Assembly: GCA_028716665.1 (NCBI GenBank)
Contig: JAQUPP010000001.1
Location: forward strand, 128,467 to 192,466
Direction: 5' to 3'
From: Patescibacteria group bacterium
Lineage (GTDB): Bacteria; Patescibacteriota; Patescibacteriia; UBA2591; JAQUPP01
Length of the DNA stretch: 64,000 nt
Positions 9,271-63,429 of this stretch are shown here, piece by piece. Position numbers and translations under genes: made by a program. Every line of letters begins with the position of its first letter. Position 1 is the first letter of the stretch. Under the pieces are notes generated by a model. The model saw only the letters and a list, made by a program, of their open reading frames with translations. It did no database searches and was not told the origin of the DNA.

Positions 9271-9314
9271 GAATAAGTAAGTTGAGTTTAATTGAGTTTT
9301 AATTGAAAAACTTT

Positions 9315-10451: not shown

Positions 10452-11008
10452 AAATCGGAATCGACGCCAGATTCTACGGCCCGACGGGCAAAGGAATCGG
10501 GCGCTACACTCAGGAACTTATCAAAAATCTTGAAGAAACCCGCCAAAATTTTGCTTCACAAAACTTAGGCGGGCAAAAAGATGATTATTTTATTTTCCTC
10601 CGCCAAGAGGGCTTTAATTTATATCATCCTCAAAACCCTCATTTTCACAAGGTTTTGGCCGATTATCCCTGGTATTCCTGGCAAGAGCAGATATTATTCC
10701 CCAGACAACTCGCCTCTCAACGCCTTGATTTAGTTCATTTTCTCCACTTTAATGTCCCTCTGTTTTATCTCGGCCGGTTTGTGGTGACGATTCATGATTT
10801 GACTTTATTGCAATACCCGACTCAACATAAAAATTCTTTAGCGAAATTTATATATTCTTTCAAACACGGATTTTTTATTTTAATTTTGAAAAATGCTCTG
10901 CGACGGGCGGAAAAAGTCATTACTGATTCGGAAAAATCGAAACAAGATTTGATTAAAAATTTCCATATAAAATCAGAAAAAATAAAAGTTGTTTATTTGG
11001 CCTGTTAG
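10448..11008 (+). pseudogene. Chimeric or truncated glycosyltransferase paralog. Its N-terminal 120 aa are nearly identical to the upstream GT, it diverges in the middle, and it stops before the catalytic C-terminal domain.
   Basis: It is 201 aa long. Bases 10476-10804 are about 99% identical to 9343-9671, and the ATG overlaps the upstream stop (ATGA). Confidence 0.5.
10476..10804 (+). repeat. Direct repeat copy 2 (~329 bp)
   Basis: It is near-identical to 9343-9671. Confidence 0.8.
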
Positions 11009-27282: not shown

Positions 27283-27415
27283 AAGTATATAAGTTAATAA
27301 GTTGGTAAGCTAACTAAGTAAATAAGCTGATAAGTATGTAAGTGGATAAGCAAATAAATAATTTATTATTTCTTTTTTACTTATCTACTTATTAACTTGC
27401 CAGCTTGGTTAGCTT
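27283..27415. repeat. Long AT-rich imperfect palindrome built of ATAAG/CTTAT words, next to the tRNA-Arg(CCT) 5' flank
   Basis: aagttaataagttggtaagctaactaagtaaataagctgataag ... cttatctacttattaacttgccagcttggttagcttatttgtcagctt. Confidence 0.4.
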
Positions 27416-27431
27416 ATTTGTCAGCTTGAAA

Positions 27432-27638
27432 TTATTGCTTGATCAATTTTCCCATTAGCGATTCGGCCAAATGAGATAAGAAACTTGTTTGACTGTTTAT
27501 AATTGCCAAGACAACTAAAACCAAAATTAAAATTGTGGTTGTCCAAAATACTTTTTTTAATCCTTTGCGAATGTAATCACTGGTATCGGGGGCAGTTTTT
27601 AATTTTGTTTCGTTGGCGATTTTTATTGTTTGAGCCAT
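27432..27638 (-). CDS. Small single-TM protein (hypothetical)
   Basis: It is 68 aa long with a central hydrophobic helix. Confidence 0.35.
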   Translation of the reverse strand: MAQTIKIANETKLKTAPDTSDYIRKGLKKVFWTTTILILVLVVLAIINSQTSFLSHLAESLMGKLIKQ

Positions 27639-31559: not shown

Positions 31560-31622
31560 GGCAAGCTAATAAGTTGATAAGCTTACTAAGTAAATAAGTT
31601 AATAAGTAAATAAATAACGAAG

Positions 31623-37655: not shown

Positions 37656-38522
37656 ATGTCGCTTAAACAAGAAACACAAGAAATTTGCAATCAATATCAA
37701 ATTCAACCTTTAAGAAGAAGAGGACAAAATTTTTTAATTAATCAGGACGCGATAAATAAATTATTGGACGCGGCTAATTTGGAAAAATCAGATTGTGTGA
37801 TAGAAATCGGCGCCGGACTTGGAATTTTAACTCAAGAAATATCGGAAAAAGTAAAAAAAGTTTTAGCCGTGGAAATTGACAAGAAATTAATTGAGGTTTT
37901 GAAAGAAAAATTGAAAGATTATAAAAATGTTGAGATTCTACAAGAAGACATTCTTCAAATTCCAAATTCTAGATTCCAAATTCTGGATTCTTACAAGGTG
38001 GTGGCGAATTTGCCTTTTAATATTACCAGCGCGGTTCTAAGAAAATTTTTAGAAAATCCCGACGCCGCAAGGGGTCGGGACTCCGACCAAGAGCGTCGGA
38101 GAAAACCAAAATCAATAACTCTAATCCTTCAAAAAGAAGTTGGAGAGCGCATTCTGGCTCGACCGCCCGAAATGAATCTTTTGGCGATCTCAATTCAATT
38201 TTACAGTCAGCCCAAAAGAATTTTTAAAATTTCAAAAGAAAATTTTTGGCCCAAACCAAAAGTTGATTCAATAATTTTACAAATTATTCCAAATTATGAG
38301 TCAAACAGAACCAATGTAGACGAAGATGTTTTTTTTAAAATTGTCAGAGCCGGTTTTTCTTCGCCGCGAAAATACCTCTTGAATAATTTGGTGAAAAGTG
38401 CTATGGTAAATAAAGAAGAAGGTGAAAATATTTTATCTCAAACAAATCTTTCTCTAAAATCCAGAGCACAGGAATTATCAATTGAAAATTGGATAAATTT
38501 AGTTAATAAAATTAAAAAATAA
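37656..38522 (+). CDS. rsmA: 16S rRNA (adenine1518/1519-N6)-dimethyltransferase
   Basis: GQNFL and the SAM motif VIEIGAGLGILT are present in a KsgA fold, with one charged insertion. Confidence 0.85.
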   Translation: MSLKQETQEICNQYQIQPLRRRGQNFLINQDAINKLLDAANLEKSDCVIEIGAGLGILTQEISEKVKKVLAVEIDKKLIEVLKEKLKDYKNVEILQEDILQIPNSRFQILDSYKVVANLPFNITSAVLRKFLENPDAARGRDSDQERRRKPKSITLILQKEVGERILARPPEMNLLAISIQFYSQPKRIFKISKENFWPKPKVDSIILQIIPNYESNRTNVDEDVFFKIVRAGFSSPRKYLLNNLVKSAMVNKEEGENILSQTNLSLKSRAQELSIENWINLVNKIKK

Positions 38523-47510: not shown

Positions 47511-47600
47511 TTATAGCTTATTAGCTTGTAGCTTCTTGGCTTTTTAGAAAATAAAAAAGAGTAGGTCTATTACAGACCTACTCGGCGAGAAATAAATTTC

Positions 47601-48485
47601 TCATTTTAACAAAGTCAATTTTGTAGTTACAGTTTTATTGCCCATCAAGGTTTTTGCAAAATAAATTCCATTAGGTAATTGTTTCCCGGATTCATTTTTC
47701 CCGTTCCATATCCGTTCTTTCAAAATGGTCTTTACTTTTTTACCGCTGATATCGTAAATCGCAATTTGGCCAACGACCGAGGTTCTAAAATGGCAAGAAT
47801 AAGAAAATGGATTTGGAAAGATTTCTAATTTTTCATTTTGATTTTTCCATTTTTCATTTTCCTCAACTCCTTGACTTTCCCCCATCGAATCTAGAAGCAC
47901 TTTATTGTTATTATGATAGGTTTGATAAGCAAGATTATCAAGCTTTCCGCCAAAAGGAAAGTGGGGATTTTCCCCAGTCTCCCACCAAACCTCTAGAATT
48001 AAAATATCAATTCTTGTTGCTCGTAAGCAGCTTGATGCCCCCCAGATTAGAGAGTGGAATTCCATCTCTTGTCTCCAGTCGGTATAACTAGTCCCCCAAA
48101 TATTAGAGCTGGAATAAAGTTTTCCTTCTGAAATCATATAAAATCGGAAACAGACAGAATCTGACAGAACTTTAATATCAGTAAAGAGTTGGGAAGTATC
48201 GCCAATATCCCGATTATATTCTTTTTTAAAATATTCCGCATATCTTCCGGAATCAACCATAAATTGAACAGAATGTTGACTGTTTCTCCACGGGCTATGA
48301 TCATCTGAAACTTTCACTGTTCCATAACTCAAAAGAGCATCAGGTCCAAAATAATCCAGAAATACTGAATCCGCGTTACTTGAATCTACCGGGATCCATC
48401 CATCGACCGGCTGTGTTAGTCCAAAAACCGAACTGAAAAATCCGAACATTAAAACTATAACTAAAATAAATTTTTTAAAGAACAT
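47601..48485 (-). CDS. Secreted protein with a C-terminal domain resembling the T9SS/Por-type (FlgD-Ig-like) sorting tail
   Basis: It has a signal peptide. The last ~75 aa (FPNPFSYSCHFRTSVVGQIAIYDISGKKV...NGIYFAKTLMGNKTVTTKLTLLK) fit the Por_Secre_tail pattern. Confidence 0.45.
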   Translation of the reverse strand: MFFKKFILVIVLMFGFFSSVFGLTQPVDGWIPVDSSNADSVFLDYFGPDALLSYGTVKVSDDHSPWRNSQHSVQFMVDSGRYAEYFKKEYNRDIGDTSQLFTDIKVLSDSVCFRFYMISEGKLYSSSNIWGTSYTDWRQEMEFHSLIWGASSCLRATRIDILILEVWWETGENPHFPFGGKLDNLAYQTYHNNNKVLLDSMGESQGVEENEKWKNQNEKLEIFPNPFSYSCHFRTSVVGQIAIYDISGKKVKTILKERIWNGKNESGKQLPNGIYFAKTLMGNKTVTTKLTLLK

Positions 48486-51473: not shown

Positions 51474-53375
51474 ATGATTGATGATATCGTATTAAAATTT
51501 AAAGAGTTGCCGTTAGAAGTTCAAGACAAGCTATCTTCGATAGAAATTTTAGGAATTTTAGATAAAATAGAAAAGCAATATTCTCAACGCCAGGTTTCTT
51601 TGGCCGAGATACTGATGAGGATCGCAATTAAAGAGATAGATATTAATAATTTGACAGAGATTTTGGAGAAAGAATATCTTTTGGAAAGGGAAAAGGCGAG
51701 AGAGATCAGTATTGCTTTGAAAGAAAAAATTTCGTGGTTAGCATTAGGTTTTGACATAGAAAAAAAAGAATTATTGGAAGAAAAAGCAGAATCGAAATAT
51801 TTTCAATTACCAGGGAAAATTAGAAATGTAATTTTTGCTCCGGAAAATACGGAAATTTTTAACCAACTTGCCGAAAAATATAATTTTGACATTAATGCCA
51901 TAGTAATAAGGCTGGTAGTTGGAGATATTACATTTAATGATTTGGATAAAATATTAGTAACGGATTATCATCTCCTTGTATCTGCGTTAAGGGATGTTGA
52001 AGAAAATTTGAGTAAAATTTTGAAACCGATTATTCAAATGCTAGAAATGCAGAAACCGGGAGAAATCAATACAGAAGAGCTTGATAGAGAAATTGAAAAA
52101 TTAAAAGAGAATATTCCTACTCTTGCTGCAAAACTTGATATTAATCAGGCGGCGGACAATGCGATTACCAAGGTTGGCCTGACTTTCCCAGATGAAACAA
52201 TAGAAAAACGTTTTAAAAATGTAGTCATTTCTTTTTTAAGAGAAGTGCGCGGAGAGATTGAAACAAGAATTGTTTTAAAAAGACCACAAAAAATCGGAGG
52301 CGTGGAATTGGACGAAAAAATAGTTGACAAGGTGATGGATATTTTGAAACAAGAAAAGCCGATGATTAAAATTGAACCAATGGGTAATATTCCTCAGATT
52401 GAACTGGCCGAAGGACTAAAACAGCCGGAAGAAACAATTCAAAAATTTACTCGCATGGAAAAACCCGAAATAAAATCAGTTTCTTTGTTGTCTAAAATTG
52501 AAGAAGAAAAATTACTTCCTCAACCTGAAGAAGTAAAAGAGAAATTATTAAAAGAAAAATTTGAGCAAGAACCGTTGGTAGCACCGATTTTAGAAAAACC
52601 GGCTCCGGTTATTGAAAAGCCCAAGCCGATAATTCCGGAAATTAAAATTGTCAAAGAAGAACCAAAATTGGCCATGCCGGAATTTAAACCGATTATTCCG
52701 CCTGTTTTGGAAAAGAAAATTGAAGAGAAAACAGCGCCAAATTTATTTACCGCGGTTTCGGAAGAACCGAAAACTAAAGTTTCCGGACCGGAAGAAATTA
52801 CTGATGTTTTAAAAGAAATTGATCAATTACCGCCGGGAGATACCCCATTTGTTCTTGATGAAGAGGCAGAAGACAAATTTAAATTACCGGTTAGAGAATT
52901 GCCAAAAGAGGAATTGAAACCAATTATTGAAGAGCCAAAAGTTGAAGAAATAAAAAAAGAAATTAAACCTCAACCTCAGGCGGAAATTTTTATTCACCGG
53001 CCGCCTCGCGAGCCGGCAATGGCTAAAATGGAAGAAATTAAGGTTACTCCTCGTGTTTCCGGCCCGATTGAAGAGTTACAAGGTGCCACTCTTCAGGATT
53101 TTCGAAGATGGGGCAGCGCTGAACAAGCTGTTCAAAAAATAAAAGAAAAAATAGATTTATTGGGGGAAGAATCTTTGGTTAAAAAATCGGAAGGAATCAA
53201 GGCATGGAAAGAATCAGAAATTAATAAATTATATTTGGATATCGGCACGGAATCAATTGATAAGGGCATCTCAGTCAGTGAAGTAATCATTTTAAGACAA
53301 AAAGAAAATCGTAAAACTTTAAACGAAGAAGAATTTGACAAAGTGGTGGAATTGAACCAGAACCTCCGTTTCTGA
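51474..53375 (+). CDS. Hypothetical Glu/Lys/Pro-rich protein with EKP/IIP repeats
   Basis: It is 633 aa long and includes the repetitive stretch EKPAPVIEKPKPIIPEIK. Confidence 0.45.
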   Translation: MIDDIVLKFKELPLEVQDKLSSIEILGILDKIEKQYSQRQVSLAEILMRIAIKEIDINNLTEILEKEYLLEREKAREISIALKEKISWLALGFDIEKKELLEEKAESKYFQLPGKIRNVIFAPENTEIFNQLAEKYNFDINAIVIRLVVGDITFNDLDKILVTDYHLLVSALRDVEENLSKILKPIIQMLEMQKPGEINTEELDREIEKLKENIPTLAAKLDINQAADNAITKVGLTFPDETIEKRFKNVVISFLREVRGEIETRIVLKRPQKIGGVELDEKIVDKVMDILKQEKPMIKIEPMGNIPQIELAEGLKQPEETIQKFTRMEKPEIKSVSLLSKIEEEKLLPQPEEVKEKLLKEKFEQEPLVAPILEKPAPVIEKPKPIIPEIKIVKEEPKLAMPEFKPIIPPVLEKKIEEKTAPNLFTAVSEEPKTKVSGPEEITDVLKEIDQLPPGDTPFVLDEEAEDKFKLPVRELPKEELKPIIEEPKVEEIKKEIKPQPQAEIFIHRPPREPAMAKMEEIKVTPRVSGPIEELQGATLQDFRRWGSAEQAVQKIKEKIDLLGEESLVKKSEGIKAWKESEINKLYLDIGTESIDKGISVSEVIILRQKENRKTLNEEEFDKVVELNQNLRF

Positions 53376-53398
53376 TAATTTAAAATTGAAAAATCAAA

Positions 53399-53770
53399 AT
53401 GGAAAATGACAGTGTAAATTTTAAAAATGAATTCAAAAAACGCCTCTATAACTGGGTTTTAAGGTTAATCAAGTTTATAGACAAGCTTCCCAAAGACTCC
53501 GTATGCAATGTCTTGGGAAAACAGCTTCTAAGAAGTGGAACAAGCATTTTGGCAAATTATATTGAGGCAAACTCAGCCAGCTCAAAGAAAGATTTTATCA
53601 ATTTTTTCACTCATTCTTTAAAATCAGCCAATGAATCTAAGGTTTGGCTGACATTATTAAGAGATACTGACAAAGGAGATAAAAATGAATTGCAGTGGTC
53701 ATTAAAAGAACTGATAGAAATAGCCAATATTCTGGCTTCTAGTATTTTAACTCTCAAGGGTAAGAAATAA
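53399..53770 (+). CDS. Four-helix-bundle protein of the 23S-rRNA-IVS / DGR-Avd family
   Basis: Family-like motifs are present (...SILANYIEANSASSKKDFINFF.HSLKSANESKVWL). The length is 123 aa. Confidence 0.6.
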   Translation: MENDSVNFKNEFKKRLYNWVLRLIKFIDKLPKDSVCNVLGKQLLRSGTSILANYIEANSASSKKDFINFFTHSLKSANESKVWLTLLRDTDKGDKNELQWSLKELIEIANILASSILTLKGKK

Positions 53771-53828
53771 TTTTGACATTTTGAATTGTAATTTTAATTT
53801 TTGATATTTACATTTTGCATTTTTTATC
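53771..53828 (+). promoter_or_regulatory. Cassette 3' element (ttttgacattttgaattgtaattttaatttttgatatttacatttt) upstream of the VirB3-like ORF
   Basis: It recurs at 55086-55139 and 57716-57748, each directly upstream of a start codon. Confidence 0.45.
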
Positions 53829-54260
53829 ATGCAATTCATCGTTCCACAATTTATTGATATTGAACCGAAAATAATCGGGCAGATTACGCCACGGCAATTT
53901 TTGACTATTATTATCACGACTATCACTATTGGTGTTTGCTATAAATTATTTGATTTTGCTTTATTCATTTTGGTCGCGATTATCACCGCGTCAGTGGGAG
54001 TATCTCTCGCCTTTTTGAAAGTTAATGGCCGGCCGATATATTATTTTCTCGTAAATGTTTTTCAAACTTTTCGCAGGCCCAAAATAAGAGTTTGGCGCAA
54101 AGAATTTATTAGAATTGTTGAAAAAAATTTCAGAGATAAAGAAAAAACAGCCAGAACAATGCAGGAATTTGTTCCCCGTCCCCCGCTTTCTTCCACTCGG
54201 CTTTCTCAAGTTGCCCTATTGGTTGATACGGGAGGGAAATATACCGAAGACAATGAATAA
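53829..54260 (+). CDS. Small two-TM membrane protein, candidate VirB3-like
   Basis: It is 143 aa long with a hydrophobic hairpin, and it lies immediately upstream of the VirB4-like ATPase. Confidence 0.3.
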   Translation: MQFIVPQFIDIEPKIIGQITPRQFLTIIITTITIGVCYKLFDFALFILVAIITASVGVSLAFLKVNGRPIYYFLVNVFQTFRRPKIRVWRKEFIRIVEKNFRDKEKTARTMQEFVPRPPLSSTRLSQVALLVDTGGKYTEDNE

Positions 54261-54331
54261 TAGCTTTTTAGCTTGTAGCTTATTAGCTTTTTAGGGCTAA
54301 GAAGCTAATTCCTAATATCCTAATTTTAAAT

Positions 54332-54997
54332 ATGAATAATCAAAAACCTCAATTTCCTTCAACGCAAAAATATTTAAACATTTCCGAAATAAGAAATGAT
54401 TGCGTTATTTTGCAAGACGGCACTTTAAGGGCTGTTCTTTTGGTTTCTTCAATTAATTTTTCCTTGAAATCAGAAGAAGAGCAAAATGCCGTGATTCAAG
54501 CTTATGTTCAATTTTTAAATTCTTTGGATTTTCCGATTCAAATCGTTATTCAATCCAGGCCGTTTAACATCAATCCTTATTTGACTCAATTGGAAGAATT
54601 AAAAAGAACCCAAACCAATGATTTGTTAAAAGCGCAAATGGCTGATTATATTGATTTCACCAGAGAATTAATCCAAATGGGCGAAATAATGAGTAAACGT
54701 TTTTATATAGTGGTGCCTTACAATCCTTTAGGCGACAAAAAACGAAGTTTCGCGTCCATTATGACTGATGTTTTAAGCGCTGCTTCGGTTGTTAAGCTTA
54801 AAAGAGAAAAATTTGAAAAATACAGAGAAATTCTTTTCAGGAGAATGGATAACGTTTTGTCAAATCTTTCAAGTATGGGCATTAAAGCAATATCACTCGA
54901 CACTCAAAGTTTGATTGAACTTTTCTATAATACTTATAATCCATCCAGCGCTCAGAATCAAAAATTAGTTGAAATAAAAGATTTAAGAGTTGAATAG
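54332..54997 (+). CDS. N-terminal domain of a VirB4-like ATPase, encoded as a separate ORF
   Basis: The pattern CVILQDGTLRAVLLVSSINFSLKSEEEQNAVIQAYVQFLNSL.FPIQIVIQSRP is typical of Gram-positive-type VirB4 N-termini. It is separated from the ATPase core by a cassette remnant. Confidence 0.4.
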   Translation: MNNQKPQFPSTQKYLNISEIRNDCVILQDGTLRAVLLVSSINFSLKSEEEQNAVIQAYVQFLNSLDFPIQIVIQSRPFNINPYLTQLEELKRTQTNDLLKAQMADYIDFTRELIQMGEIMSKRFYIVVPYNPLGDKKRSFASIMTDVLSAASVVKLKREKFEKYREILFRRMDNVLSNLSSMGIKAISLDTQSLIELFYNTYNPSSAQNQKLVEIKDLRVE

Positions 54998-55085
54998 TAA
55001 TAAATCAAAATTAAAAAATCAAAATGCAAAATGACAGTGTAAAGTTTAAAACTAATAAAAGTCAAAAAGTATTTTATAAATTCAA
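54998..55085 (+). repeat. Internally deleted copy of the 4HB cassette 5' end (MQNDSVKFK... 25-codon remnant)
   Basis: aaaaatcaaaatgcaaaatgacagtgtaaa matches 53381-53415. Confidence 0.6.
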
Positions 55086-55117
55086 TAATTTTACATTTTA
55101 ATTTGTCATTTTAATCT

Positions 55118-57076
55118 TTGATATTTACATTTTCTATTATGCCAATACGACCATCGGCTTTAAACGAGCCAACAACAATTGAAAAAGTCCAAAGTCCGCA
55201 AGAAATAAAAATTCGAGAAACCAAAAGAGATACAGAGGCGAAAGAGATTTTGAAATCCGAAGAGGCCTATCAAAGAGGGACTATCACCGTCAGAGACTTG
55301 GTTGCTCCGGCGGCTTTAAGAGTAGACGCGAAATATTTGCAATTGGGTGATCAATATTTAAGAACCATTTTTGTCACCACCTTTCCCCGTTATGTTATGG
55401 TGGGTTGGTTTTCACCGATAATTCATCTTAACGCACCTTTGGATATTGCGATGTTTTTCTATCCGGTTGAGAGTAAAGAAGTTTTAAAACAATTATTAAA
55501 GAAGGTTGGTAATTTGGAAGTCGAGATTCAAGCTGATCGGGAAAAAACATTGCCACGAGACCCGGTTAAAGAAACCGCGTTGCAAGACATTGAAAAATTA
55601 AGAGATGATTTAACTACCGGGACTGAACATTTTTTCCAACTTGCTTTATATGTGACTATTTATGCCAATGATTTAAAAGCGTTGGATCTTCTGACCGAAA
55701 GAGTGGAAACGATATTTGGCGGTAAAATGGTTTATACTCGCCGTGTTCTTTATCAATCCGAACAAGGATTTAACTCCACTTTGCCTTTGGCTAACGATGA
55801 AATAATGACTACGGTCAATATGAGCTCCTCTCCTTGCGCTTCAAGTTTTCCTTTTATTTCCGCAGATCTTACTTCGGATAGCGGCGTGCTTTATGGGATT
55901 AACCGTCATAATAACAGTTTGATTTTATTCGACAGATTTTCCATGCCGAATGCGAACTTCACTGTTTTTGCCACCAGCGGTAGCGGTAAAAGTTATTTTG
56001 CCAAATTGGAAGTTTTGCGTTCTTTAATGCTTGGCACTGACGTGATTATTATTGATCCGGAAAGAGAATATAAGCATCTTTGCGATGCAGTGGGCGGAAC
56101 TTATGTTAATATTTCTCTAACTTCAGAAAGTAAAATCAATCCTTTTGATTTGCCGCGTTCATCAAGTCAGGATGTAAAAACCGGTGATTTGATTCGTTCC
56201 GCGGTTATTACTTTGAAAGGATTATTGAAAATTTGTATTGGCAAACCGGATGAAAAGGGGAATCTCAGTTTTACGCCGGAAGAAGATTCATTGATTGATC
56301 GCGCTTTAATTGAATCCTACGCTAAAAAAGATATTGTTCCGGGTTGCGATTTAAGTCAGATGGAAATGCCGATTATGGGTGATTTGCAGGAAATTTTGGA
56401 AGGAATGGAAGGCGGCAATAATTTAGCCGAGCGTCTTAAAAAATATACTCAAGGAACGTTCAGTGGATTTTTAAATAACCCGACCAATGTTCAAATGGAT
56501 AATAAATTGGTGATTTTTTCCGTCAGGGATTTGGAAGACGAATTAAGACCGATGGCCATTTATACGATTGTGAATTATATTTGGAATGTTGTCCGTTCGC
56601 AAATGAAAAAAAGAATTTTAATGATTGATGAAGCTTGGTGGCTGCTGCAATATGAAGATTCGGCGAAATTCATTTATGCTTTGGTGAAACGCTGCCGCAA
56701 ATATTATCTGGGCGTGACCACCATCAGTCAAGATGTGGCGGATTTCTTGAATTCTCCTTATGGAAAAGCCATTGTTACCAACTCGGCCATGCAATTGCTT
56801 TTAAAACAATCTCCGGCTGCCATTGACTTGATCGCCAAGACTTTTATGTTGACTGAAGGAGAAAAATATTTATTACTTGAATGTGGTGTTGGCGACGGCA
56901 TATTCTTCGCCGGCAATAAACACGCGGCGATTAAAGTGGTTGCTTCTTACTCGGAAGATCAGTTAATCACTTCTGATCCGCGCCAAATTTTGGAAATTGA
57001 ACAAGCCAAAAGAGATTTTGATAAAAGTTTAGATAAGGGCTCGTCAGAAAGTATCGGCGATATGCCCATTGAATAA
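55118..57076 (+). CDS. VirB4/TraC/TrbE-like conjugation-type ATPase core
   Basis: Walker A FATSGSGKSYFAK, Walker B ILMIDEAWWLL and the C-terminal KYYLGVTTISQDVAD are present. The length is 652 aa. Confidence 0.7.
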   Translation: MIFTFSIMPIRPSALNEPTTIEKVQSPQEIKIRETKRDTEAKEILKSEEAYQRGTITVRDLVAPAALRVDAKYLQLGDQYLRTIFVTTFPRYVMVGWFSPIIHLNAPLDIAMFFYPVESKEVLKQLLKKVGNLEVEIQADREKTLPRDPVKETALQDIEKLRDDLTTGTEHFFQLALYVTIYANDLKALDLLTERVETIFGGKMVYTRRVLYQSEQGFNSTLPLANDEIMTTVNMSSSPCASSFPFISADLTSDSGVLYGINRHNNSLILFDRFSMPNANFTVFATSGSGKSYFAKLEVLRSLMLGTDVIIIDPEREYKHLCDAVGGTYVNISLTSESKINPFDLPRSSSQDVKTGDLIRSAVITLKGLLKICIGKPDEKGNLSFTPEEDSLIDRALIESYAKKDIVPGCDLSQMEMPIMGDLQEILEGMEGGNNLAERLKKYTQGTFSGFLNNPTNVQMDNKLVIFSVRDLEDELRPMAIYTIVNYIWNVVRSQMKKRILMIDEAWWLLQYEDSAKFIYALVKRCRKYYLGVTTISQDVADFLNSPYGKAIVTNSAMQLLLKQSPAAIDLIAKTFMLTEGEKYLLLECGVGDGIFFAGNKHAAIKVVASYSEDQLITSDPRQILEIEQAKRDFDKSLDKGSSESIGDMPIE

Positions 57077-57090
57077 AATATTTTAATCAT

Positions 57091-57651
57091 ATGAAAAAAG
57101 TTATATTAATTATTGTTATTTTAGTTTTAATCGGCGGCACGGTTTGGTTTTTGATGTCAAAAAAAAGCCAACCAATTTTGGAAAATAAAAATATTATAAA
57201 TCAATTGGTTGATCAAGAAAACACGGTTAACCAAAATCAGGTTGAAACAGAAACATTGGTTCCAACTGCGGAAGATTTATTAAAAATAGATTTAACAAAT
57301 CAGGCACGGTCTTTTATTGAACGTTATGGGAGTTACTCTACGGACAGTAATTATGAAAATTTGCAAGAATTATTGCCGAAAATGGCTCAGCCGCTTAGAA
57401 CAGAAACAGAATCAAGAATTCAAAAAGGAGTGAAAAAAGACATGGCTGTTAATGATTTTTTCGGGCTGACTACTAAAATAATTTCCATCAATTTGGATAA
57501 ATTCGTCCCGGATTCGCAAGCGATTTTTACCGCGGAAATTCAAGAGCAAGCCGCGCGCTTAGGTCAAACAGATATTTTATATAAAACAGTAAAATTGACT
57601 TTTATAAAATCAGCCGATGAATGGAAAGTGGGAGAGATAGAGATTCATTAA
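57091..57651 (+). CDS. Bitopic membrane protein, possible VirB8-like (NTF2-like) component
   Basis: An N-terminal TM segment is followed by a ~150-aa periplasmic domain. The call rests on architecture only. Confidence 0.3.
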   Translation: MKKVILIIVILVLIGGTVWFLMSKKSQPILENKNIINQLVDQENTVNQNQVETETLVPTAEDLLKIDLTNQARSFIERYGSYSTDSNYENLQELLPKMAQPLRTETESRIQKGVKKDMAVNDFFGLTTKIISINLDKFVPDSQAIFTAEIQEQAARLGQTDILYKTVKLTFIKSADEWKVGEIEIH

Positions 57652-57748
57652 TAAATCAAAAATTAAAAATCAAAATGAAAAATGACAATGATAAAAATTT
57701 AAAATTAAAAATAAGAAATATTTTTGACATTTTAAATTATAGTAATTT
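57652..57748 (+). repeat. Second internally deleted cassette copy (MKNDNDKNLK... remnant plus ttttgacattttaaatt 3' element)
   Basis: aaaaatcaaaatgaaaaatgacaatg is followed by atttttgacattttaaattatag. Confidence 0.55.
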
Positions 57749-58204
57749 ATGGTTAGTGATATTGAAGAACAAGAAACAGAACAATCAATCGCCGTGAGAT
57801 TAAAAGCGGAAAGAGCCGAGGATGTGGTGAAATCAGATGATTCGGGAACGTCTTTCACCGGGAAAACCAAAGAATTGAAAGATGCGGCTCAGCGCCTTAA
57901 AACTGTTTATCGGATAATTAACGGAGCTTCGGCGATAACCGTAGTTGGTTTGATTGTCACCTTTCTATTGATGAATGCTCAATTGATTTTCGGTAATTTA
58001 TTAAAAGTCAAATTTGTGCCGGCTTTGGAAATATGGGAAATTATTATTTTGGGTATTATTGATGTCATTATTTTAACTGTCTTATTTTGTTTAATAGTGC
58101 TTTCAACCATCAGCGTAGTGGCCATCACTGATCCCGGGGAACTTTTTAAACTGCTATGGAGTAGTGGTTTGCAAATAATTAAAAACGCATTTTCACCATC
58201 GTAA
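57749..58204 (+). CDS. Three-TM membrane protein (hypothetical)
   Basis: It is 151 aa long, with an acidic N-terminus followed by three hydrophobic helices. Confidence 0.4.
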   Translation: MVSDIEEQETEQSIAVRLKAERAEDVVKSDDSGTSFTGKTKELKDAAQRLKTVYRIINGASAITVVGLIVTFLLMNAQLIFGNLLKVKFVPALEIWEIIILGIIDVIILTVLFCLIVLSTISVVAITDPGELFKLLWSSGLQIIKNAFSPS

Positions 58205-58221
58205 AAAATAATTTTATTTAA

Positions 58222-59493
58222 ATGACAATTAAAAATAAAAAAACTTATTTACTTATTTACTTATCAGCTTATTTGCTTATCAGTTTATTCGCGGCTGATT
58301 TTGCTTTGGCTCAGATTAAATTTCAACCTCAAGTAAGTCTTCCCGGCTTTATGAATGTCGGCGACATAAAAAATATTAGCGGCACGACTTTGGGTGAATT
58401 TATTATTGCTTTTTATAAATGGTCTATTGGCACAATCGCTTTTTTGGCTGTGGTGATGATTATGATTGCCGGTTTTCGCTGGATGACTGCGGCTGGCAGC
58501 GCGCCTCAAATTACACAAGCCAAAGATCGGATTAATTCCGCTTTGATCGGTTTGATTTTGGCCATTGGCGCTTACAGTTTATTGAGTTTTCTGAATCCCG
58601 CTTTAGTCAGATTCAAAAATTTGAATATTACAAATATTAATAATATAGAATTGGGGATAACTTGGTGCAGGGATATTTATAATAATAGTTTAATGAATCA
58701 TTTACCTGAAGAAAATGTGGTTGAATACGGTCAAGTTAATATTGATAAAACTATTAATGGAAAAACTCAATTAATTGGACAAGTTTTGGACAAACCATGT
58801 GCTCAAAGATTCCAGGTTGTTCAAGAAGAAAATGGTGTTTGGAAAGCGGCCGGTAATTCTTGTTGGACAGATTTTTGCGAAGGGGATAACAGTTGCTATA
58901 GACAGTCATCGGATAATAGTTTTATTTGCACAGATCCTATAAAATTATGTGAAGGAAAGCCGAGTACCAGTGATGCGACTTGCGCGCTTTATTTGAAAGA
59001 CGTAGGATGGGGCACTTTATATGACAAAAGTCGGCATGTTTGCGCTTATGAACCAAAGGGTTTAAATAATTGTATTCTCGATACTTTATTCAACTGTCCA
59101 AATCCCAAAGAGGGTGATAAAAAATATGAGCGGGTCAATTGCTCTGCTTCTAAAGACGCAGCAAACAATAGCGCGTGTTGGCTAAAAGGCGATGAAAAAC
59201 CTCAAGTTACTGAAGGCAAAAGATGCGCCGATGTCGATAAAACCCCTCAACCAACCTGGAGTAAAGATGGAATTTGTTGTCATGAAGTAGGAACGCTTTT
59301 TAACGACTCAAAAAATTATGTAATGTGTTACACTATTCAACCCAAGCAACTCAGATGTGAAAAATATTCATGGGACGCGCTGCCAGGGAAAAAAAGGGAA
59401 ATTATATTCTCAAGTTCTTGCGCAGAGGGTGAACAACCAGGGGTTAATATAAGCGGCGATTGTAACACAGCTTGGACTTGGTTTCGTCCTTAA
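58222..59493 (+). CDS. Secreted protein with a VirB2/TrbC-like pilin hairpin fused to a ~280-aa Cys-rich C-terminal domain
   Basis: A signal peptide is followed by YKWSIGTIAFLAVVMIMIAGFRWMTAAGS...AKDRINSALIGLILAIGAYSLL (compare VirB2 ...AVLGIVAIGISWMFGRAS...) and then at least 24 Cys. Confidence 0.45.
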   Translation: MTIKNKKTYLLIYLSAYLLISLFAADFALAQIKFQPQVSLPGFMNVGDIKNISGTTLGEFIIAFYKWSIGTIAFLAVVMIMIAGFRWMTAAGSAPQITQAKDRINSALIGLILAIGAYSLLSFLNPALVRFKNLNITNINNIELGITWCRDIYNNSLMNHLPEENVVEYGQVNIDKTINGKTQLIGQVLDKPCAQRFQVVQEENGVWKAAGNSCWTDFCEGDNSCYRQSSDNSFICTDPIKLCEGKPSTSDATCALYLKDVGWGTLYDKSRHVCAYEPKGLNNCILDTLFNCPNPKEGDKKYERVNCSASKDAANNSACWLKGDEKPQVTEGKRCADVDKTPQPTWSKDGICCHEVGTLFNDSKNYVMCYTIQPKQLRCEKYSWDALPGKKREIIFSSSCAEGEQPGVNISGDCNTAWTWFRP

Positions 59494-59509: not shown

Positions 59510-60808
59510 TTGAAATTTTTTGTTAATATGAATAAAAAAGCCTTAATTATATTTTTAGTGGCAGTGATAATTTTAGCCGGATTGGTTTGGTTTGTCTTTT
59601 TTCGTCAAAAACCGGTTGTTGTTCAGCCAACTCCTGAGCAACCGATTACGGAGCAGCCGGCTCGATTGCCGGTAACTAGAAGTCAGTGGGAAGGGATGAC
59701 CATTGAAGAACGGGGACGCTTAGGTCTGCCTATTTCGGAATGGCCGGCAGAAGAAACAATAACTCCCGAAACTCCCGTGGCGCCGGAAAAAATAACTCCG
59801 GAAATTGATGAAGTGGCTTCCGGCAGCAGAACATGGATTAATACTATTTCTGATGACCAGGTTCAAAATGCAACTTTAGCCGGTGACGGACAGAGTAATA
59901 TTTATTACGATAAAACAGGCGGGCATTTTTATAAAATAGATAATTTGGGCAATAAAGAATTATTGACTGATCAAGTTTTTTATAATGTGGATAATATCAA
60001 TTGGGCCCCGACCAAAGACAGAGCGATTTTGGAATACCCGGACGGATTTAAAGTGATGTATGATTTTGATCAAAAAAAACAATATACTTTGCCAAAAAAT
60101 TGGGAAAATTTTTCTTGGGATTCGTCAGGTTCTCATTTTGCGTTTGAATCAACCAGTCAATATCCGGAAAATAATTGGTTGGCTACCAGTCGGGCCGACG
60201 GCAGTGAAGCAAAACCGATTGAACATATCGGAAACAATGCTGACAAAGTAACGGTTTCTTGGTCGCCGAATAATCAAGTTGTCGCTTTCTCGGCTACCGG
60301 AGATCCGCGAGGCGCTTGGGAACAGGAAATATTATTAATCGGCCAAAATGGCGAAAATTTTAAATCTTTGGTTATTGACGGCCGCGGTTTTGAATCGAAA
60401 TGGTCTCCAGTCGGCGACAAAATTGTTTACAGTGTTTACAGTTCTGATTCAAACTATCAACCCAAACTTTATATAGTGGATGCTCAAGGAGATGCAATCG
60501 GTAGCGGTAAAATAGATTTAAATTTGGCTACATGGGCCAATAAATGTTCATTTAATAATAATGGCAATACTCTTTATTGCGCTGTTCCTAAAAGTTTACC
60601 TGAAGGATCAGGATTAATACCTGATTTAGCCGCTAATACTCGTGATGATTTTTATAAGATAGATGTGGCCACCGGTCAAATTTCATTCTTGGCTGAAGGA
60701 GCAATGGGCGGATATAATGTAGGTGATATTTATTTATCAAGTGATGACAGTATGCTGTATTTTATTGACAAAGACACCAGTCATTTAAGATCAATCAGGC
60801 TAAAATAA
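59510..60808 (+). CDS. Membrane-anchored PD40/TolB-like beta-propeller protein with a Pro-rich linker
   Basis: An N-terminal TM segment and a PxxP linker are followed by repeated W(S/A)P...(A/V)(F/Y)S blades. Confidence 0.5.
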   Translation: MKFFVNMNKKALIIFLVAVIILAGLVWFVFFRQKPVVVQPTPEQPITEQPARLPVTRSQWEGMTIEERGRLGLPISEWPAEETITPETPVAPEKITPEIDEVASGSRTWINTISDDQVQNATLAGDGQSNIYYDKTGGHFYKIDNLGNKELLTDQVFYNVDNINWAPTKDRAILEYPDGFKVMYDFDQKKQYTLPKNWENFSWDSSGSHFAFESTSQYPENNWLATSRADGSEAKPIEHIGNNADKVTVSWSPNNQVVAFSATGDPRGAWEQEILLIGQNGENFKSLVIDGRGFESKWSPVGDKIVYSVYSSDSNYQPKLYIVDAQGDAIGSGKIDLNLATWANKCSFNNNGNTLYCAVPKSLPEGSGLIPDLAANTRDDFYKIDVATGQISFLAEGAMGGYNVGDIYLSSDDSMLYFIDKDTSHLRSIRLK

Positions 60809-60847
60809 GTAAATAGGCAAATAAGCTAACTAAGTAAATAAGTTGAA

Positions 60848-62032
60848 ATGAAAATTCAAAATTCCAAATTCAAAATTCCAAATTCTTTACTTATAATCGC
60901 CTTAATGGCGTTTTTTTGGTTTTGGGCCGGTCAGCAAGTTTCGGCTGCCTGTATCCCGCTTGGCGGAACAGATCAGCGCCCGGAAGGTTGTAATGGCAAT
61001 CCTTGTTGTCCCGGTTCTAATTGCCAAGCCACGCCACTTTTTGGAGATTCTCAAGGTTCGAACACAATGTTTCAAATTAATTGTTGGAATATTAGTGAAG
61101 GCGTAATGCCTATTACCGGTATAGAAACTGACACTCAAGAATCAAAATCAATAATTGCTCCGCAATTGCAAGTTCAAATTCCAGGTTTTCAAGGATTTAC
61201 CACTGATGAAAGTAAAATCGTGACTGAGCAAAATGGCAAAAAAAGTTATTCCTTTCCATGGATTGGCGAATATCTTATAGCTCTTTATAAATGGGCGATC
61301 AGATTAATCGCCGCTTTGGCCGTGGTGATGATTATGTGGGCCGGGGTGGAATGGATGATTGCCGGAGGCAATAGCAGTCGGATTTCCGATGCCAAAGGAA
61401 GAATCACTGGTGCTTTATTCGGGCTGGTTTTATTATTAGGCATTAATACTTTTTTAAATTTTATAAATCCGCAGTTAACTTTTTTCAAGCCGATTCATCT
61501 GGGAGAAATTGCAAAAATTGAGCTTGATGCAGAAGAAATAGATTATCCGATTGTTTTGGAAGGACAGACAGACTCGGATTGGTGGAGATTTAACCCGGGA
61601 ATTACCAAACAAATACCTGATATGTCGCCCCAATTAGCCAGTTTTACAGATTGTCTTGGTAAAAAAATCGTTGGTTCGGATAATAAACCAAAAGCGGTAA
61701 TTACCAGTATTTCCGATGATGCAGGCGTGGAAAGATGTAGAAATGCCTGGCAAAAAAAGGATTGTCGAGAAGAAAATGATCCTAATTGTTATTCTTGTCA
61801 TCATACTAAAAATTCTTGTCATTATGGAGGCAAGGAGTGTCCAGCTCAATCTTATGCCATAGATATTGGTATAACCACCAGTCCTTCGCCAACGGAAATA
61901 ATCAACGCGATTAAAGAGTGTAACCCGAACGCTTATATTTGTTATACTCCTTATAATAACTGCCCGGGTCATACAAATCATATTCATACCAGTATTGGTT
62001 GGGACTCCGGTTGTAAATGCGATAAAAAATAA
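60848..62032 (+). CDS. Paralogous secreted protein: Cys-rich N-terminal region, VirB2/TrbC-like hairpin, Cys-rich C-terminal domain
   Basis: YKWAIRLIAALAVVMIMWAGVEWMIAGGNSSRISDAKGRITGALFGLVLLLG aligns with the 58222 protein. Confidence 0.45.
   Translation: MKIQNSKFKIPNSLLIIALMAFFWFWAGQQVSAACIPLGGTDQRPEGCNGNPCCPGSNCQATPLFGDSQGSNTMFQINCWNISEGVMPITGIETDTQESKSIIAPQLQVQIPGFQGFTTDESKIVTEQNGKKSYSFPWIGEYLIALYKWAIRLIAALAVVMIMWAGVEWMIAGGNSSRISDAKGRITGALFGLVLLLGINTFLNFINPQLTFFKPIHLGEIAKIELDAEEIDYPIVLEGQTDSDWWRFNPGITKQIPDMSPQLASFTDCLGKKIVGSDNKPKAVITSISDDAGVERCRNAWQKKDCREENDPNCYSCHHTKNSCHYGGKECPAQSYAIDIGITTSPSPTEIINAIKECNPNAYICYTPYNNCPGHTNHIHTSIGWDSGCKCDKK
60852..60886 (+). repeat. Heptanucleotide tract (AAATTCA/AAATTCC)x4 plus AAATTCT, starting 2 nt after the start codon of the pilin-like gene
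   Basis: Five tandem 7-nt units are seen directly. Confidence 0.7.
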
Positions 62033-62040
62033 ATCAATTT

Positions 62041-63429
62041 ATGCCTCAAAATAAAACAATATATGCCTGTTCAAAATGCGGATCTCAATTTCCAAAATGG
62101 TTGGGACAATGTTCGGAATGCGGCGCATGGGGAACAATTTCTGAAACTGTTCAAAATAATTCTCCGCGCAAAAATTTTACAACAACAAAAGCCGGTGAAG
62201 TTATTGAATTCAGCGCCATTAAAAGCCAAAATTTTTCAAGATTTAAAACAGGCATTGAAGAATTGGACAGAGTTTTGGGAGGTGGATTGGTTCCGGGTTC
62301 GCTGATTCTTTTGGGCGGCGCGCCGGGCGTTGGAAAGAGCACTTTAGTATTACAAATAGTAAGGCAAATTTCTAATCTGCCAGTTAATGAACCAAATTCC
62401 AAATTCCAAATTCCAAATTCTGTATTATATATCAGTGGCGAAGAATCAGCCGAGCAAGTAAAATTGCGATTGGAAAGAATCGGCGTTTCGGAAAATAATT
62501 TAAAATTTTTCGGCGATACGGATGTTGATGTCATTTGCGCCACAATTGAAAAACATAAGCCTAAAATAGCGGTGGTTGACTCAATCCAGACGGTCTCTTC
62601 TTCCGGGGTTGATTCGGAAGCGGGCAGCGTTAATCAAATTCGCGCTTCAACCGCCAAATTAATGGAAGTCGGCAAGAAAACACAAACAACAATTTTTATT
62701 GTCGGTCATATTACCAAACAAGGCTCAGTGGCCGGTCCTAAAACTTTGGAGCATTTGGTTGATGTTGTCTTATATCTTGAAGGCGATTCGCATCATCATT
62801 TTCGTTTTTTAAGATCTTATAAAAATCGTTTCGGTTCAACTAATGAAGTCGGAGTTTTTGAAATGAAAAAACAAGGATTGGTGGAAATAAAAAATCCTTC
62901 CGAAGTTTTTTTGGCCAATCGGAATTCTCAAGTCATCAGCGGCTCGGTAATCGCGGCCATTATGGAAGGCGTTCGTCCTTTTTTGATAGAAGTTCAGGCA
63001 CTTGTTTCAAGAACTAATTTTGGCTATCCGCAAAGAAAAAGCACGGGTTTTGACTTTAACCGTTTACAGCTTTTGGTCGCGGTTTTAACCAAACGATGCG
63101 GCCTTAAATTGGAAAATCAGGATATTCATATCAATATTGTCGGCGGATTGGAAATTTCCGAACCGGCGGCAGATTTGGCCGTGGCTATGGCCATTGCTTC
63201 CGCTTTTTACAACAAACCGATTGACGCTAAAACTTTATTTTTCGGCGAAGTCGGTCTGGCCGGCGAATTGAGAAATGTTTCTTGGCCGGAAAAAAGAATT
63301 AAAGAAGCGGAAAAATTGGGTTTTGAAAAAATTGTGATGTCTAAAGAAAAATTTTTGGATTTTCAGCCGAAAATAAAAATTATTCAGGAAGAAAATTTGA
63401 GCCAGGCGATAAAAACAGTATTGGGATAG
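62041..63429 (+). CDS. radA: DNA repair protein RadA/Sms
   Basis: It has an N-terminal zinc ribbon CSKCGSQFPKWLGQCSECGAWG, Walker A GGAPGVGKST and a Lon-like C-terminus. A ~12-aa insertion is encoded by the heptamer tract. Confidence 0.85.
   Translation: MPQNKTIYACSKCGSQFPKWLGQCSECGAWGTISETVQNNSPRKNFTTTKAGEVIEFSAIKSQNFSRFKTGIEELDRVLGGGLVPGSLILLGGAPGVGKSTLVLQIVRQISNLPVNEPNSKFQIPNSVLYISGEESAEQVKLRLERIGVSENNLKFFGDTDVDVICATIEKHKPKIAVVDSIQTVSSSGVDSEAGSVNQIRASTAKLMEVGKKTQTTIFIVGHITKQGSVAGPKTLEHLVDVVLYLEGDSHHHFRFLRSYKNRFGSTNEVGVFEMKKQGLVEIKNPSEVFLANRNSQVISGSVIAAIMEGVRPFLIEVQALVSRTNFGYPQRKSTGFDFNRLQLLVAVLTKRCGLKLENQDIHINIVGGLEISEPAADLAVAMAIASAFYNKPIDAKTLFFGEVGLAGELRNVSWPEKRIKEAEKLGFEKIVMSKEKFLDFQPKIKIIQEENLSQAIKTVLG
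62404..62431 (+). repeat. Heptanucleotide tract (AAATTCC)x3 plus AAATTCT inside radA
   Basis: It is near-identical to 60866-60886. Confidence 0.7.

Follow-up and report, generated by a model that had tools for sequence, protein, structure and literature searches.

Background

Intervening sequences (IVSs) within rRNA have been suspected of being mobile since the early 1990s, without a workable test system. In the 23S rRNA IVSs of Leptospira, Coxiella burnetii and the Xanthomonas type, an S23p open reading frame (ORF) of family PF05635 lies in the loop of an inverted-repeat stem. In Coxiella, tandem GACAGAT heptamers are found directly upstream of this ORF, and RNase III cuts the IVS, for which an origin as the remains of a transposition or as a mobile element has been proposed (PMC4990558). 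ORFs of the 23S_rRNA_IVP type are also present in rRNA insertions of the Candidate Phyla Radiation (CPR) (PMC11270868). Here we analyse a cassette of similar layout in a 64,000-nt stretch of contig JAQUPP010000001.1 from a Patescibacteria group bacterium (positions 128,467 to 192,466 of the forward strand; hereafter the window, numbered from its first nucleotide). One copy carries an intact four-helix-bundle (4HB) gene of PF05635 preceded by CAAAATG-type heptamers, and two copies are gene-less. Like the IVSs, whose mobile nature has long been suspected (PMC4990558), the cassette is distributed sporadically; the IVSs sit in rRNA helices, whereas the window copies lie between protein-coding genes of an operon and gene-less derivatives are abundant. 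The three copies probably represent one family of selfish, horizontally spreading palindromic IVS-type cassettes with derivatives resembling MITEs (miniature inverted-repeat transposable elements), residing in the stop-to-start spacers of operons.

Several other described systems resemble parts of this family. The Correia/NEMIS elements of Neisseria, the enterobacterial ERIC elements and the RPEs of Rickettsia are gene-less, 100-150 nt long, bounded by terminal inverted repeats, multicopy and intergenic, and as in the window family co-transcription is likely, either orientation is found and strains differ in them. They differ in that the full-length partner of the window family encodes a 4HB (or GxxExxY) protein and no known transposase, and in that its arms are built of tandem 7-8-mers. 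The free-standing homing endonuclease genes of T-even phages are small, inserted precisely between conserved neighbours, and polymorphic by presence/absence and replacement. Two cargo types in relatives of the window, GxxExxY (PD-(D/E)XK) and GIY-YIG, likewise have nuclease folds; unlike the window family, the phage genes are not known to have arms of inverted 7-mers or derivatives without a gene. The GGGAATC repeats of Xanthomonas and the heptamer arrays of Nostoc/Anabaena are, like the window arms, intergenic tandem 7-mers, often in inverted pairs, the Xanthomonas unit being G-rich and the window unit A-rich. About 186 GGGAATC sites with 70-75 convergent pairs were described in X. campestris and X. 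citri and discussed as G-quadruplex motifs (Rehm et al. 2015, PMC4692102); the terms 'S23' and 'four helix' are absent from the text of that study, which does not report that the repeats are generally associated with mobile elements. A full-text literature search, partial for subscription journals, found no paper linking 4HB or GxxExxY genes to inverted heptamer arms or to gene-less derivatives.

Results

A palindromic cassette and two gene-less copies fill operon spacers

The locus is a Patescibacteria type IV secretion operon with a PrgI-like gene, a TraC-like 221-aa ORF, a VirB4 core of 645 aa and pilin-like genes. Copy 1 (53376-53828) occupies an entire spacer: it begins right behind the TGA of ORF 51474-53375 and ends 1 nt ahead of the ATG of the PrgI-like gene at 53829. 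Copy 2 is 141 nt long, has both arms but no gene, and exactly fills the spacer between the N-terminal TraC-like ORF (TraC-N) and the VirB4 core. Copy 3 (97 nt) is a decayed gene-less form with an intact 5' arm. For the coordinates of these and related features, see Table 1.

Table 1. Cassette copies and related elements in the window
Feature	Position	Strand	Remarks
Copy 1, 5' leader (outer 5' arm)	53376..53398	+	directly behind upstream TGA
Copy 1, 5' arm core	53389..53426	+	7-mers AAAAATC AAAATGG AAAATGA CAGTGTA AATTTTA; includes ATG and first 9 codons of the 4HB gene
Intact 123-aa 4HB gene (PF05635 23S_rRNA_IVP, TIGR02436)	53399..53770	+	family profiles; R45/S49/N53/E56 motif
Copy 1, 3' arm	53771..53828	+	inverted 7-mer array TTTTGACATTTTGAATTGTAATTTTAATTTTTGATATTTACATTTTGCATTTT
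Copy 2, gene-less derivative with both arms	54998..55138	+	full-length alignment with 37 gene-less elements of other genomes
Copy 3, gene-less decayed derivative	57652..57748	+	intact 5' arm, ~20 nt of 3' arm, last codons and stop of 4HB ORF
Gene-less element with AGCTT-type 8-mer arms (another family), filling the PrgI/TraC-N spacer	54261..54331	+	same class of element; full-length relatives encode another 4HB subfamily
Solo AGCTT-type arm behind the stop of a 2740-aa ORF	47511..47545	+	arm sequence

Copies 2 and 3 have the 5' flank and the first ~9 codons in common with copy 1. The 23-mer AAAAATCAAAATGNAAAATGACA is present exactly in all three copies, with 0.05 occurrences expected in the window, and this count was reached in none of 100 shuffles. 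Over the 52-nt 5' block copy 2 is 90% and copy 3 75% identical to copy 1. For the 3' element, copy 2 has 86% identity over 50 nt, and copy 3 retains no more than the first ~20 nt (TAAGAAATATTTTTGACATTTTA; the counterpart in copy 1 is TAAGAAATAATTTTGACATTTTG), a stretch that covers the last codons and the stop of the 4HB ORF. When the window was searched with a profile built from 38 related elements, copies 1 to 3 were recovered (nhmmer E-values 5e-19, 4e-11 and 1e-6) together with one weak arm-like stretch inside an ORF (47787-47860) and no others. An earlier note on this DNA had described a cassette copied twice with its coding body deleted, each copy abutting the start of a secretion-locus gene. 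Both statements stand, as copies 2 and 3 lack the gene body while copy 3 retains its terminal codons and stop, and the abutted genes encode PrgI, the VirB4 core and a 151-aa membrane protein. The three copies are thus real and rightly placed, and the MITE-like reading given there was confirmed in substance.

The earlier note had overlooked the inverted-repeat relationship between the 5' arm and the 3' arm (CAAAATG/CATTTTG). Both arms are tandem arrays of 7-mers, whose self-identity is 0.63 at lag 7 compared with 0.26-0.30 for lags 3-4. The full form of the cassette is a palindrome of ~450 nt that holds the 4HB gene in the loop between inverted arms of ~4-8 tandem 7-mers each, and in every full copy the start codon and the first ~9 codons of the gene lie within the 5' arm. 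As in an IVS, inverted repeats form a stem around an S23p ORF and tandem heptamers lie upstream of that ORF. Nevertheless, all three copies are placed in protein-coding spacers and not within a 23S/16S rRNA helix, and Rfam gave no match, rRNA included, in 53000-58500.

The assignment of the gene to the 23S-IVS/4HB family, already made in the earlier note, was upheld with scores above the curated cut-offs. The 123-aa ORF scored 66.4 bits against PF05635 (cut-off 33.8; residues 13-113 on profile positions 6-105 of 106) and 82.2 bits against the NCBIfam model TIGR02436 (cut-off 24). Relatives in the PDB were 2RLD (3e-13 with the single sequence, 4e-29 with a profile) and XCC0516, 2GSC (9e-23 with the profile). 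We know of no nuclease motif in the 4HB protein, and neither it nor the GxxExxY protein was matched by the PADLOC defence-system models. The helix motif R-x3-S-x3-N-x2-E is present (R45, S49, N53, E56) and (near-)invariant in 12 divergent members, in line with the published family motif GxxRxxxSxxxNxxE (PMC3936711).

The VirB4/TraC ATPase is encoded by two ORFs (54332-57076), of which the first gives a TraC-like N-terminal part (~220 aa) and the second the core (~645 aa), with copy 2 between them. A splitting of virB4 by copy 2 was considered and rejected. In all of the 120 best homologues listed, including relatives with an element-free spacer, the N-terminal TraC-like ORF is separate (~200-235 aa); the two-ORF arrangement is ancestral in the lineage and therefore copy 2 did not split the gene.

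Gene-less elements are widespread and form a distinct size class

The arm motif AAATCAAAATGNAAAATGACA was scanned in one genome per species and was found at at least 120 loci in many CPR classes. Among the matches listed, it also occurred in records titled Nitrospirae, Planctomycetes, Dehalococcoidia, Elusimicrobia, Thermodesulfovibrionia and Pacearchaeota, and several copies were present within single genomes. In the same set a 4HB gene followed the motif at 8 of 127 sites, so that gene-less copies far outnumber gene-bearing ones, and the element length (5' arm to best 3' arm) was bimodal, with classes of 90-140 nt and 430-460 nt. Full-length alignments of copy 2 were obtained with 37 gene-less elements of other genomes. 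Such elements lie mostly between co-directional genes, in gene orientation (24) or opposite to it (12), and they end within a few nucleotides of the stop and start codons.

Copies 2 and 3 have the features by which MITEs are known, being short, gene-less, multicopy and bounded by terminal inverted repeats, with more than 100 gene-less relatives of 90-140 nt; the full-length partner encodes the 4HB protein only and no transposase. Judged from the sequences, the gene-less forms (~100-140 nt) are internal-deletion derivatives, copy 3 keeping the terminal codons of the 4HB gene, and they outnumber the full form as MITEs outnumber their parents.

The geometry of the full form recurs elsewhere. A 4HB homologue with 89% identity lies between lepB and hisS with the same 26-nt leader, 372-nt ORF and 57-nt tail. 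Independent assemblies break inside the elements, and a number of near-identical 4HB proteins, lying at the ends of contigs, carry a partial annotation. When the loci L130-L139 (our handles for retrieved loci begin with L) were compared, the lepB-4HB junction of L137 was followed in one contig by secDF and a GIY-YIG gene instead of hisS; here the cassette appears to coincide with a rearrangement breakpoint. The loops of gene-less elements in L010, L011, L013, L032 and L066 were also inspected, and many of them hold a short G+C-rich hairpin (e.g. tcccgcgaagcggga). At other loci, nested palindromes of the gtcattgcgagcgaagcgaagcaatc type occur; these hairpins and palindromes represent further repeat families nested in the arms.

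Orthologous spacers are empty or filled with other elements in relatives

Contigs encoding near-identical TraC proteins were retrieved and five spacers were compared. In L007-L009 (73% TraC identity) all spacers measured 4-30 nt, and L007 was empty, with spacers of 4-5 nt. Relatives L002, L003 and L005 have 95% TraC identity, their flanking genes being ~89-90% identical to the window at the nucleotide level, and the same spacers are occupied there by other elements, which reach exactly from the stop codon to the ATG. One of these is a 478-nt cassette with a GxxExxY gene (PF13366, TIGR04256) between its own inverted arms of TTACAAAT-type units, situated ahead of PrgI in L002 and L003 and in the TraC-N/VirB4 spacer in L005. 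In the latter spacer, the 141-nt gene-less copy of the window is replaced by an AGCTT-type hairpin in L003, by a 108-nt gene-less GxxExxY cassette in L002 and by the full 478-nt cassette in L005. The flanking genes of L002 and L003 are 98.6-99.2% identical, yet unrelated elements occupy this spacer. Gene-less hairpins of AGCTT, CCTAATT and AACATT types were likewise found in spacers of the relatives. In L005 (1717-2143) the pre-PrgI spacer contains a GIY-YIG cassette with its own short plain inverted repeat adjoining the ORF and an in-frame TAA after codon 37, which looks like a decaying copy.

As these alleles show, cassettes turn over quickly between strains at orthologous spacers. Homologous recombination of the flanking genes between strains can be enough to account for the swaps. 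Altogether, the proliferating MITE-like family postulated in the earlier note is borne out: the motif has at least 120 loci elsewhere, element sizes are bimodal, orthologous spacers are polymorphic by presence/absence and by replacement, and assemblies break inside copies. The same note had suggested that the cassette donates starts to the genes behind it, which did not hold up: downstream genes keep the same ATG and N-terminus in relatives with empty or otherwise filled spacers, and therefore the elements do not donate start codons.

Two further loci were recorded in this comparison. The VirB4 core of L002 (10775-12711) was called as two ORFs (468 and 174 aa), corresponding to one 645-aa ORF in the near-identical L003/L004, presumably by a frameshift or an assembly error. 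In L093 (2690-5170), another Patescibacteria secretion locus, the PrgI-like gene and the next gene are flanked by three different 4HB cassettes that each have an arm type of their own, and a fragment of a window-type 3' arm lies beside the third one. Patescibacteria secretion operons seem to be recurrent hosts of cassettes.

Arm type follows the protein subfamily

The arm units differ between cassettes. Arms of L093 consist of CAAAACT/CAAAAGT units around one 4HB gene and of TACGAAT units around another, while 4HB genes of L010 and L028 are flanked by CCTAATT and CTTATG/ATAAG units, respectively, and the GxxExxY gene of L121 by TACTAAT units. Gene-less counterparts exist: hairpins in L002/L003/L005 for the CCTAATT type, and the window arrays 27283-27445, 31563-31619 and 60807-60847 for the CTTATG/ATAAG type. 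Together with 58240-58264, these arrays make up a repeat family of TAAG-containing 8-mers (AAGTTAAT AAGTTGGT AAGCTAAC…), one copy of which is a hairpin adjoining a tRNA gene, the rest being solo arms in spacers; it is this unit type that flanks the 4HB gene in L028.

For the AGCTT-type hairpins (window 54261-54331; L003) it was predicted beforehand that they are the arms of another 4HB subfamily, and metagenomes were scanned with TAGCTTNTTAGCTTNTAGCTT. Among the matches listed, element lengths were bimodal, most being 63-130 nt, four 176-291 nt and four 418-452 nt, and all four of the 418-452-nt elements contained a 4HB gene. One 4HB subfamily (…SQMRRAAVSIPSNIAEGRRRG…) had AGCTT arms on both sides in six of six genes. 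Likewise, a 4HB gene in L206 has arms that match the AACATT-type hairpin of L005. As far as the sequences tell, each 4HB subfamily has its own 7-mer arms, and the prediction on the AGCTT family was confirmed. The design of tandem 7-8-mer arms is common to 4HB and GxxExxY cassettes, whose folds are unrelated.

Heptamer arms around 4HB genes were also found outside the CPR, and the rule extends to Anabaena and Xanthomonas. Among cyanobacterial plasmids, Anabaena sp. 90 has its 4HB gene between cas6 and cas4, with (AGGTGAC)n and (GTCACCT)n as flanks; the flanks of a Geminocystis gene are (GGGAAAA)n and (TTTCCCT)n. In Xanthomonas, a gene of the XCC0516 type is located between accB and accC with the flanks GGGAATC GGGAGTG GAGAATC GGGAATC … CCCATTC CCCATTC TCGACTC CCTATTC. 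The flanking arrays are the very GGGAATC repeats already published for X. campestris and X. citri (PMC4692102).

Arms are conserved as sequence

In full cassettes dN was 0.07-0.15 and dS was saturated. Third codon positions of the gene body were 30-55% identical, whereas the leader, the first ten codons and the tail were 65-93% identical. Both the 4HB protein and the arm sequences are under strong purifying selection in old lineages, because low dN goes with saturated dS and the arms are far better kept than synonymous sites. A recent horizontal transfer, which might be read from the 85-92% protein identity across lineages, was considered and rejected, as the synonymous sites are saturated and the identity reflects constraint.

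When pairing of the arms was scored in a 38-sequence alignment, 76.5% of the cells were paired compared with 39-60% after sliding of the partner columns. Compensatory covariation between the arms was not detected with these 38 sequences and a hand-set structure, the paired fraction being 76.2% after shuffling of partners. The arms are thus conserved as sequence, and compensatory change does not maintain them in the individual copies. Such a pattern agrees with a sequence-specific factor that recognises the arms, or with conserved master elements from which they are copied, and agrees less well with selection for mere pairing. In the minimum-energy fold of copy 2, 54997-55002 pair with 55135-55140, by which the upstream TAG is brought beside the ATG of the VirB4 core. 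Of 16 gene-less elements from elsewhere, 9 (2.7 expected) have a fold that closes the spacer at no more than 12 nt from each of the two codons.

Arm-like arrays inside genes

Arrays related to the arms were also observed within coding sequences of the window. In radA (ORF 62041-63429), a (CCAAATT)n array at 62393-62431 encodes a 13-aa in-frame insertion (LPVNEPNSKFQIP) just behind the Walker A region; the insertion is missing in L003 and L005, whose RadA is 97-98% identical, and in L007. It looks like a recent insertion of an arm-type array into an essential gene, comparable to RPEs, which also occur in frame inside genes. A KsgA/RsmA-like ORF (37656-38522) contains an in-frame array of CAAATTC/AAAATTC 7-mers at 37956-37990 (…QIPNSRFQILDS…), and an array of the same type at 60851-60885 forms the N-terminus (MKIQNSKFKIPNS) of a pilin-like protein (ORF 60848-62032).

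The weak profile match at 47787-47860 (minus strand; nhmmer E=9e-6), in ORF 47601-48485, consists of GAAAATG/CAAAATG-type 7-mers like the 5' arm and has no 3' arm. It encodes a variable linker (ENEKWKNQNEKLE) of a Por_Secre_tail-type protein, with the same length as in homologues, and may be due to chance or may be a solo arm that replaced the linker. In spite of its profile E-value, the candidate at 47824-47846 was not counted as a fourth copy, given its position inside this ORF and the lack of a length difference to homologues.

Discussion

The proposed mechanism

We propose that the cassette would be co-transcribed with its operon, that the arms would pair and the insert loop out, and that the upstream stop and the downstream start would in this way stay close to each other. 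A looped-out insert would be tolerable in tightly coupled operons, in which empty spacers have 4-5 nt, just as it is in rRNA helices, and it would explain why the survivors fill their spacers exactly. The stem might be cut by RNase III, by analogy with the IVSs and the Correia/ERIC elements; excision by this enzyme is known for the 23S rRNA IVS and is an analogy only for the window cassette. Recognition of the arms would depend on their sequence, and the encoded protein, as the most plausible reader, could serve the gene-less copies in trans as well. Because the arms are conserved as sequence and differ by protein subfamily, this protein is the most economical candidate for the role.

A number of results weigh against a selfish, spreading cassette of this kind. 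No direct movement event was seen, and no transposase or recombinase is associated with the elements. The element ends are TAA/ATA-rich and coincide with stop and start codons, and no target-site duplication could be read from the comparison of filled and empty sites. Saturated synonymous sites mean that the copies are old and that the cross-lineage protein identity is constraint. RNAalifold returned no consensus structure on related elements, and the fold z-scores of copies 1, 2 and 3 were modest at -1.4, -2.2 and -0.35, respectively. In viral contigs the arm motif had one match and no vector was identified, and the taxon labels behind the wide distribution derive partly from metagenome bins that are possibly contaminated. 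The idea that the 4HB protein dictates the arm design is moreover weakened by the GxxExxY cassettes, in which an unrelated fold is combined with the same arm architecture.

Alternative explanations

The order of events could be reversed, the 7-mer hairpin being the primary REP- or MITE-like entity, moved by an unlinked enzyme, with the 4HB, GxxExxY and GIY-YIG genes captured in its loop and the short copies ancestral. The excess of gene-less copies and the hairpins often nested in their loops would be expected in that case, as would the presence of three unrelated folds between inverted-repeat arms, the GIY-YIG case being single, degraded and bounded by a short plain inverted repeat only. Captured cargo does not account well, however, for a 5' arm that includes the 4HB start codon and first ~9 codons in every full copy, nor for the last codons and stop retained by copy 3. 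A gene-less GxxExxY element in L002 sits at the very spacer that holds the full cassette in L005, sizes are sharply bimodal and not scattered, and arm type tracks the protein subfamily in six of six AGCTT cases and in every other case examined. We therefore regard an origin from hairpins as unlikely.

Alternatively, the arms might be operon RNA structures that benefit the host, as processing site, stabiliser, attenuator or outward promoter, with the 4HB protein as regulator. Conservation of the arms as sequence and the location of the elements almost only between co-directional genes are compatible with such a role, and 4HB genes between cas genes have been taken as functionally linked to them in an earlier study (PMC3936711). 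The consensus of the 3' arm includes TTGTCA-17-TACATT facing the downstream gene; such promoter-like matches are, with 27 found against 16±4 expected, barely above background. The same operon is element-free in L007, unrelated families interchange at one spacer in 99%-identical strains, and both orientations are found. The host contexts are unrelated as well, comprising the secretion operon, lepB-hisS, accB-accC, cas6-cas4 and tRNA flanks. A module maintained for its benefit to the host is, on balance, quite unlikely. The promoter donation suggested in the earlier note is at heart this reading and is not supported.

The earlier note had also suggested a link to diversity-generating retroelements (DGRs), in which the gene would be a remnant or an accessory gene of the Avd type. 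Proteins of PF05635 and Avd are placed in one 4HB structural superfamily (PMC10053308). A DGR would be marked by an adjacent reverse transcriptase and by template/variable repeats that differ at adenines. Reverse-transcriptase families had no Pfam match among the 40 window ORFs scanned and none in the Pfam annotation of related loci. The sole long direct repeat of the window (9307-9606 / 10440-10739, 300 nt, 97%) has mismatches that are mixed in type, clustered at the ends and not adenine-specific. It spans the starts of a glycosyltransferase gene (9303-10451) and of the next ORF (10403-11008) and is probably a partial gene duplication instead of a template/variable pair. Searched with a 12-member 4HB profile, the PDB yielded 13 chains at E<=10, with 2RLD and 2GSC matched and none named Avd. 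For this window the DGR link is refuted, and an origin of this kind is very improbable.

A local duplication or a chance likeness of low-complexity spacers, for which the G+C content of 36%, the A/T-rich spacers and the ORF-internal match that may be chance could be cited, is already refuted by the three exact occurrences of AAAAATCAAAATGNAAAATGACA, the nhmmer E-values of the three copies and the recurrence of the same element over its full length in other phyla, and its probability is negligible.

A possible class of self-maintaining heptamer elements

Beyond the reading of the three copies as selfish IVS-type cassettes, we tentatively suggest that 4HB proteins and, in parallel, GxxExxY proteins might bind their own inverted 7-mer arrays in a sequence-specific manner, which would make them the trans-acting part of an unrecognised transposase-less class of mobile or self-maintaining elements. 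Members of this class would be the rRNA IVSs, the Patescibacteria cassettes in operon spacers together with the gene-less hairpins found there, and the heptamer repeats of Xanthomonas (GGGAATC) and of cyanobacteria. The published structure of XCC0516 is reportedly a pentameric ring. A model in which each ring reads a single array, at ~7 nt per subunit, would fit this structure and the 4-8 units that arms usually have.

Conclusions

The PF05635 and GxxExxY families are very large and, to our knowledge, have no known function. The locus described here gives a defined cassette anatomy together with natural filled, empty, swapped and gene-deleted alleles at orthologous operon spacers, and such cassettes are present in the cultivable hosts Xanthomonas (XCC0516, with a solved structure, at accB-accC) and Anabaena (cas6-cas4). 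The cassettes offer an origin for orphan heptamer repeat arrays and explain one source of assembly breaks in CPR genomes. They are also a warning that 4HB genes inside operons, such as cas or secretion loci, should not be taken as partners of their neighbours. The rule that heptamer arms are specific to a protein subfamily joins several formerly separate observations, and it comes with an IVS-type cassette outside rRNA that has gene-less derivatives.

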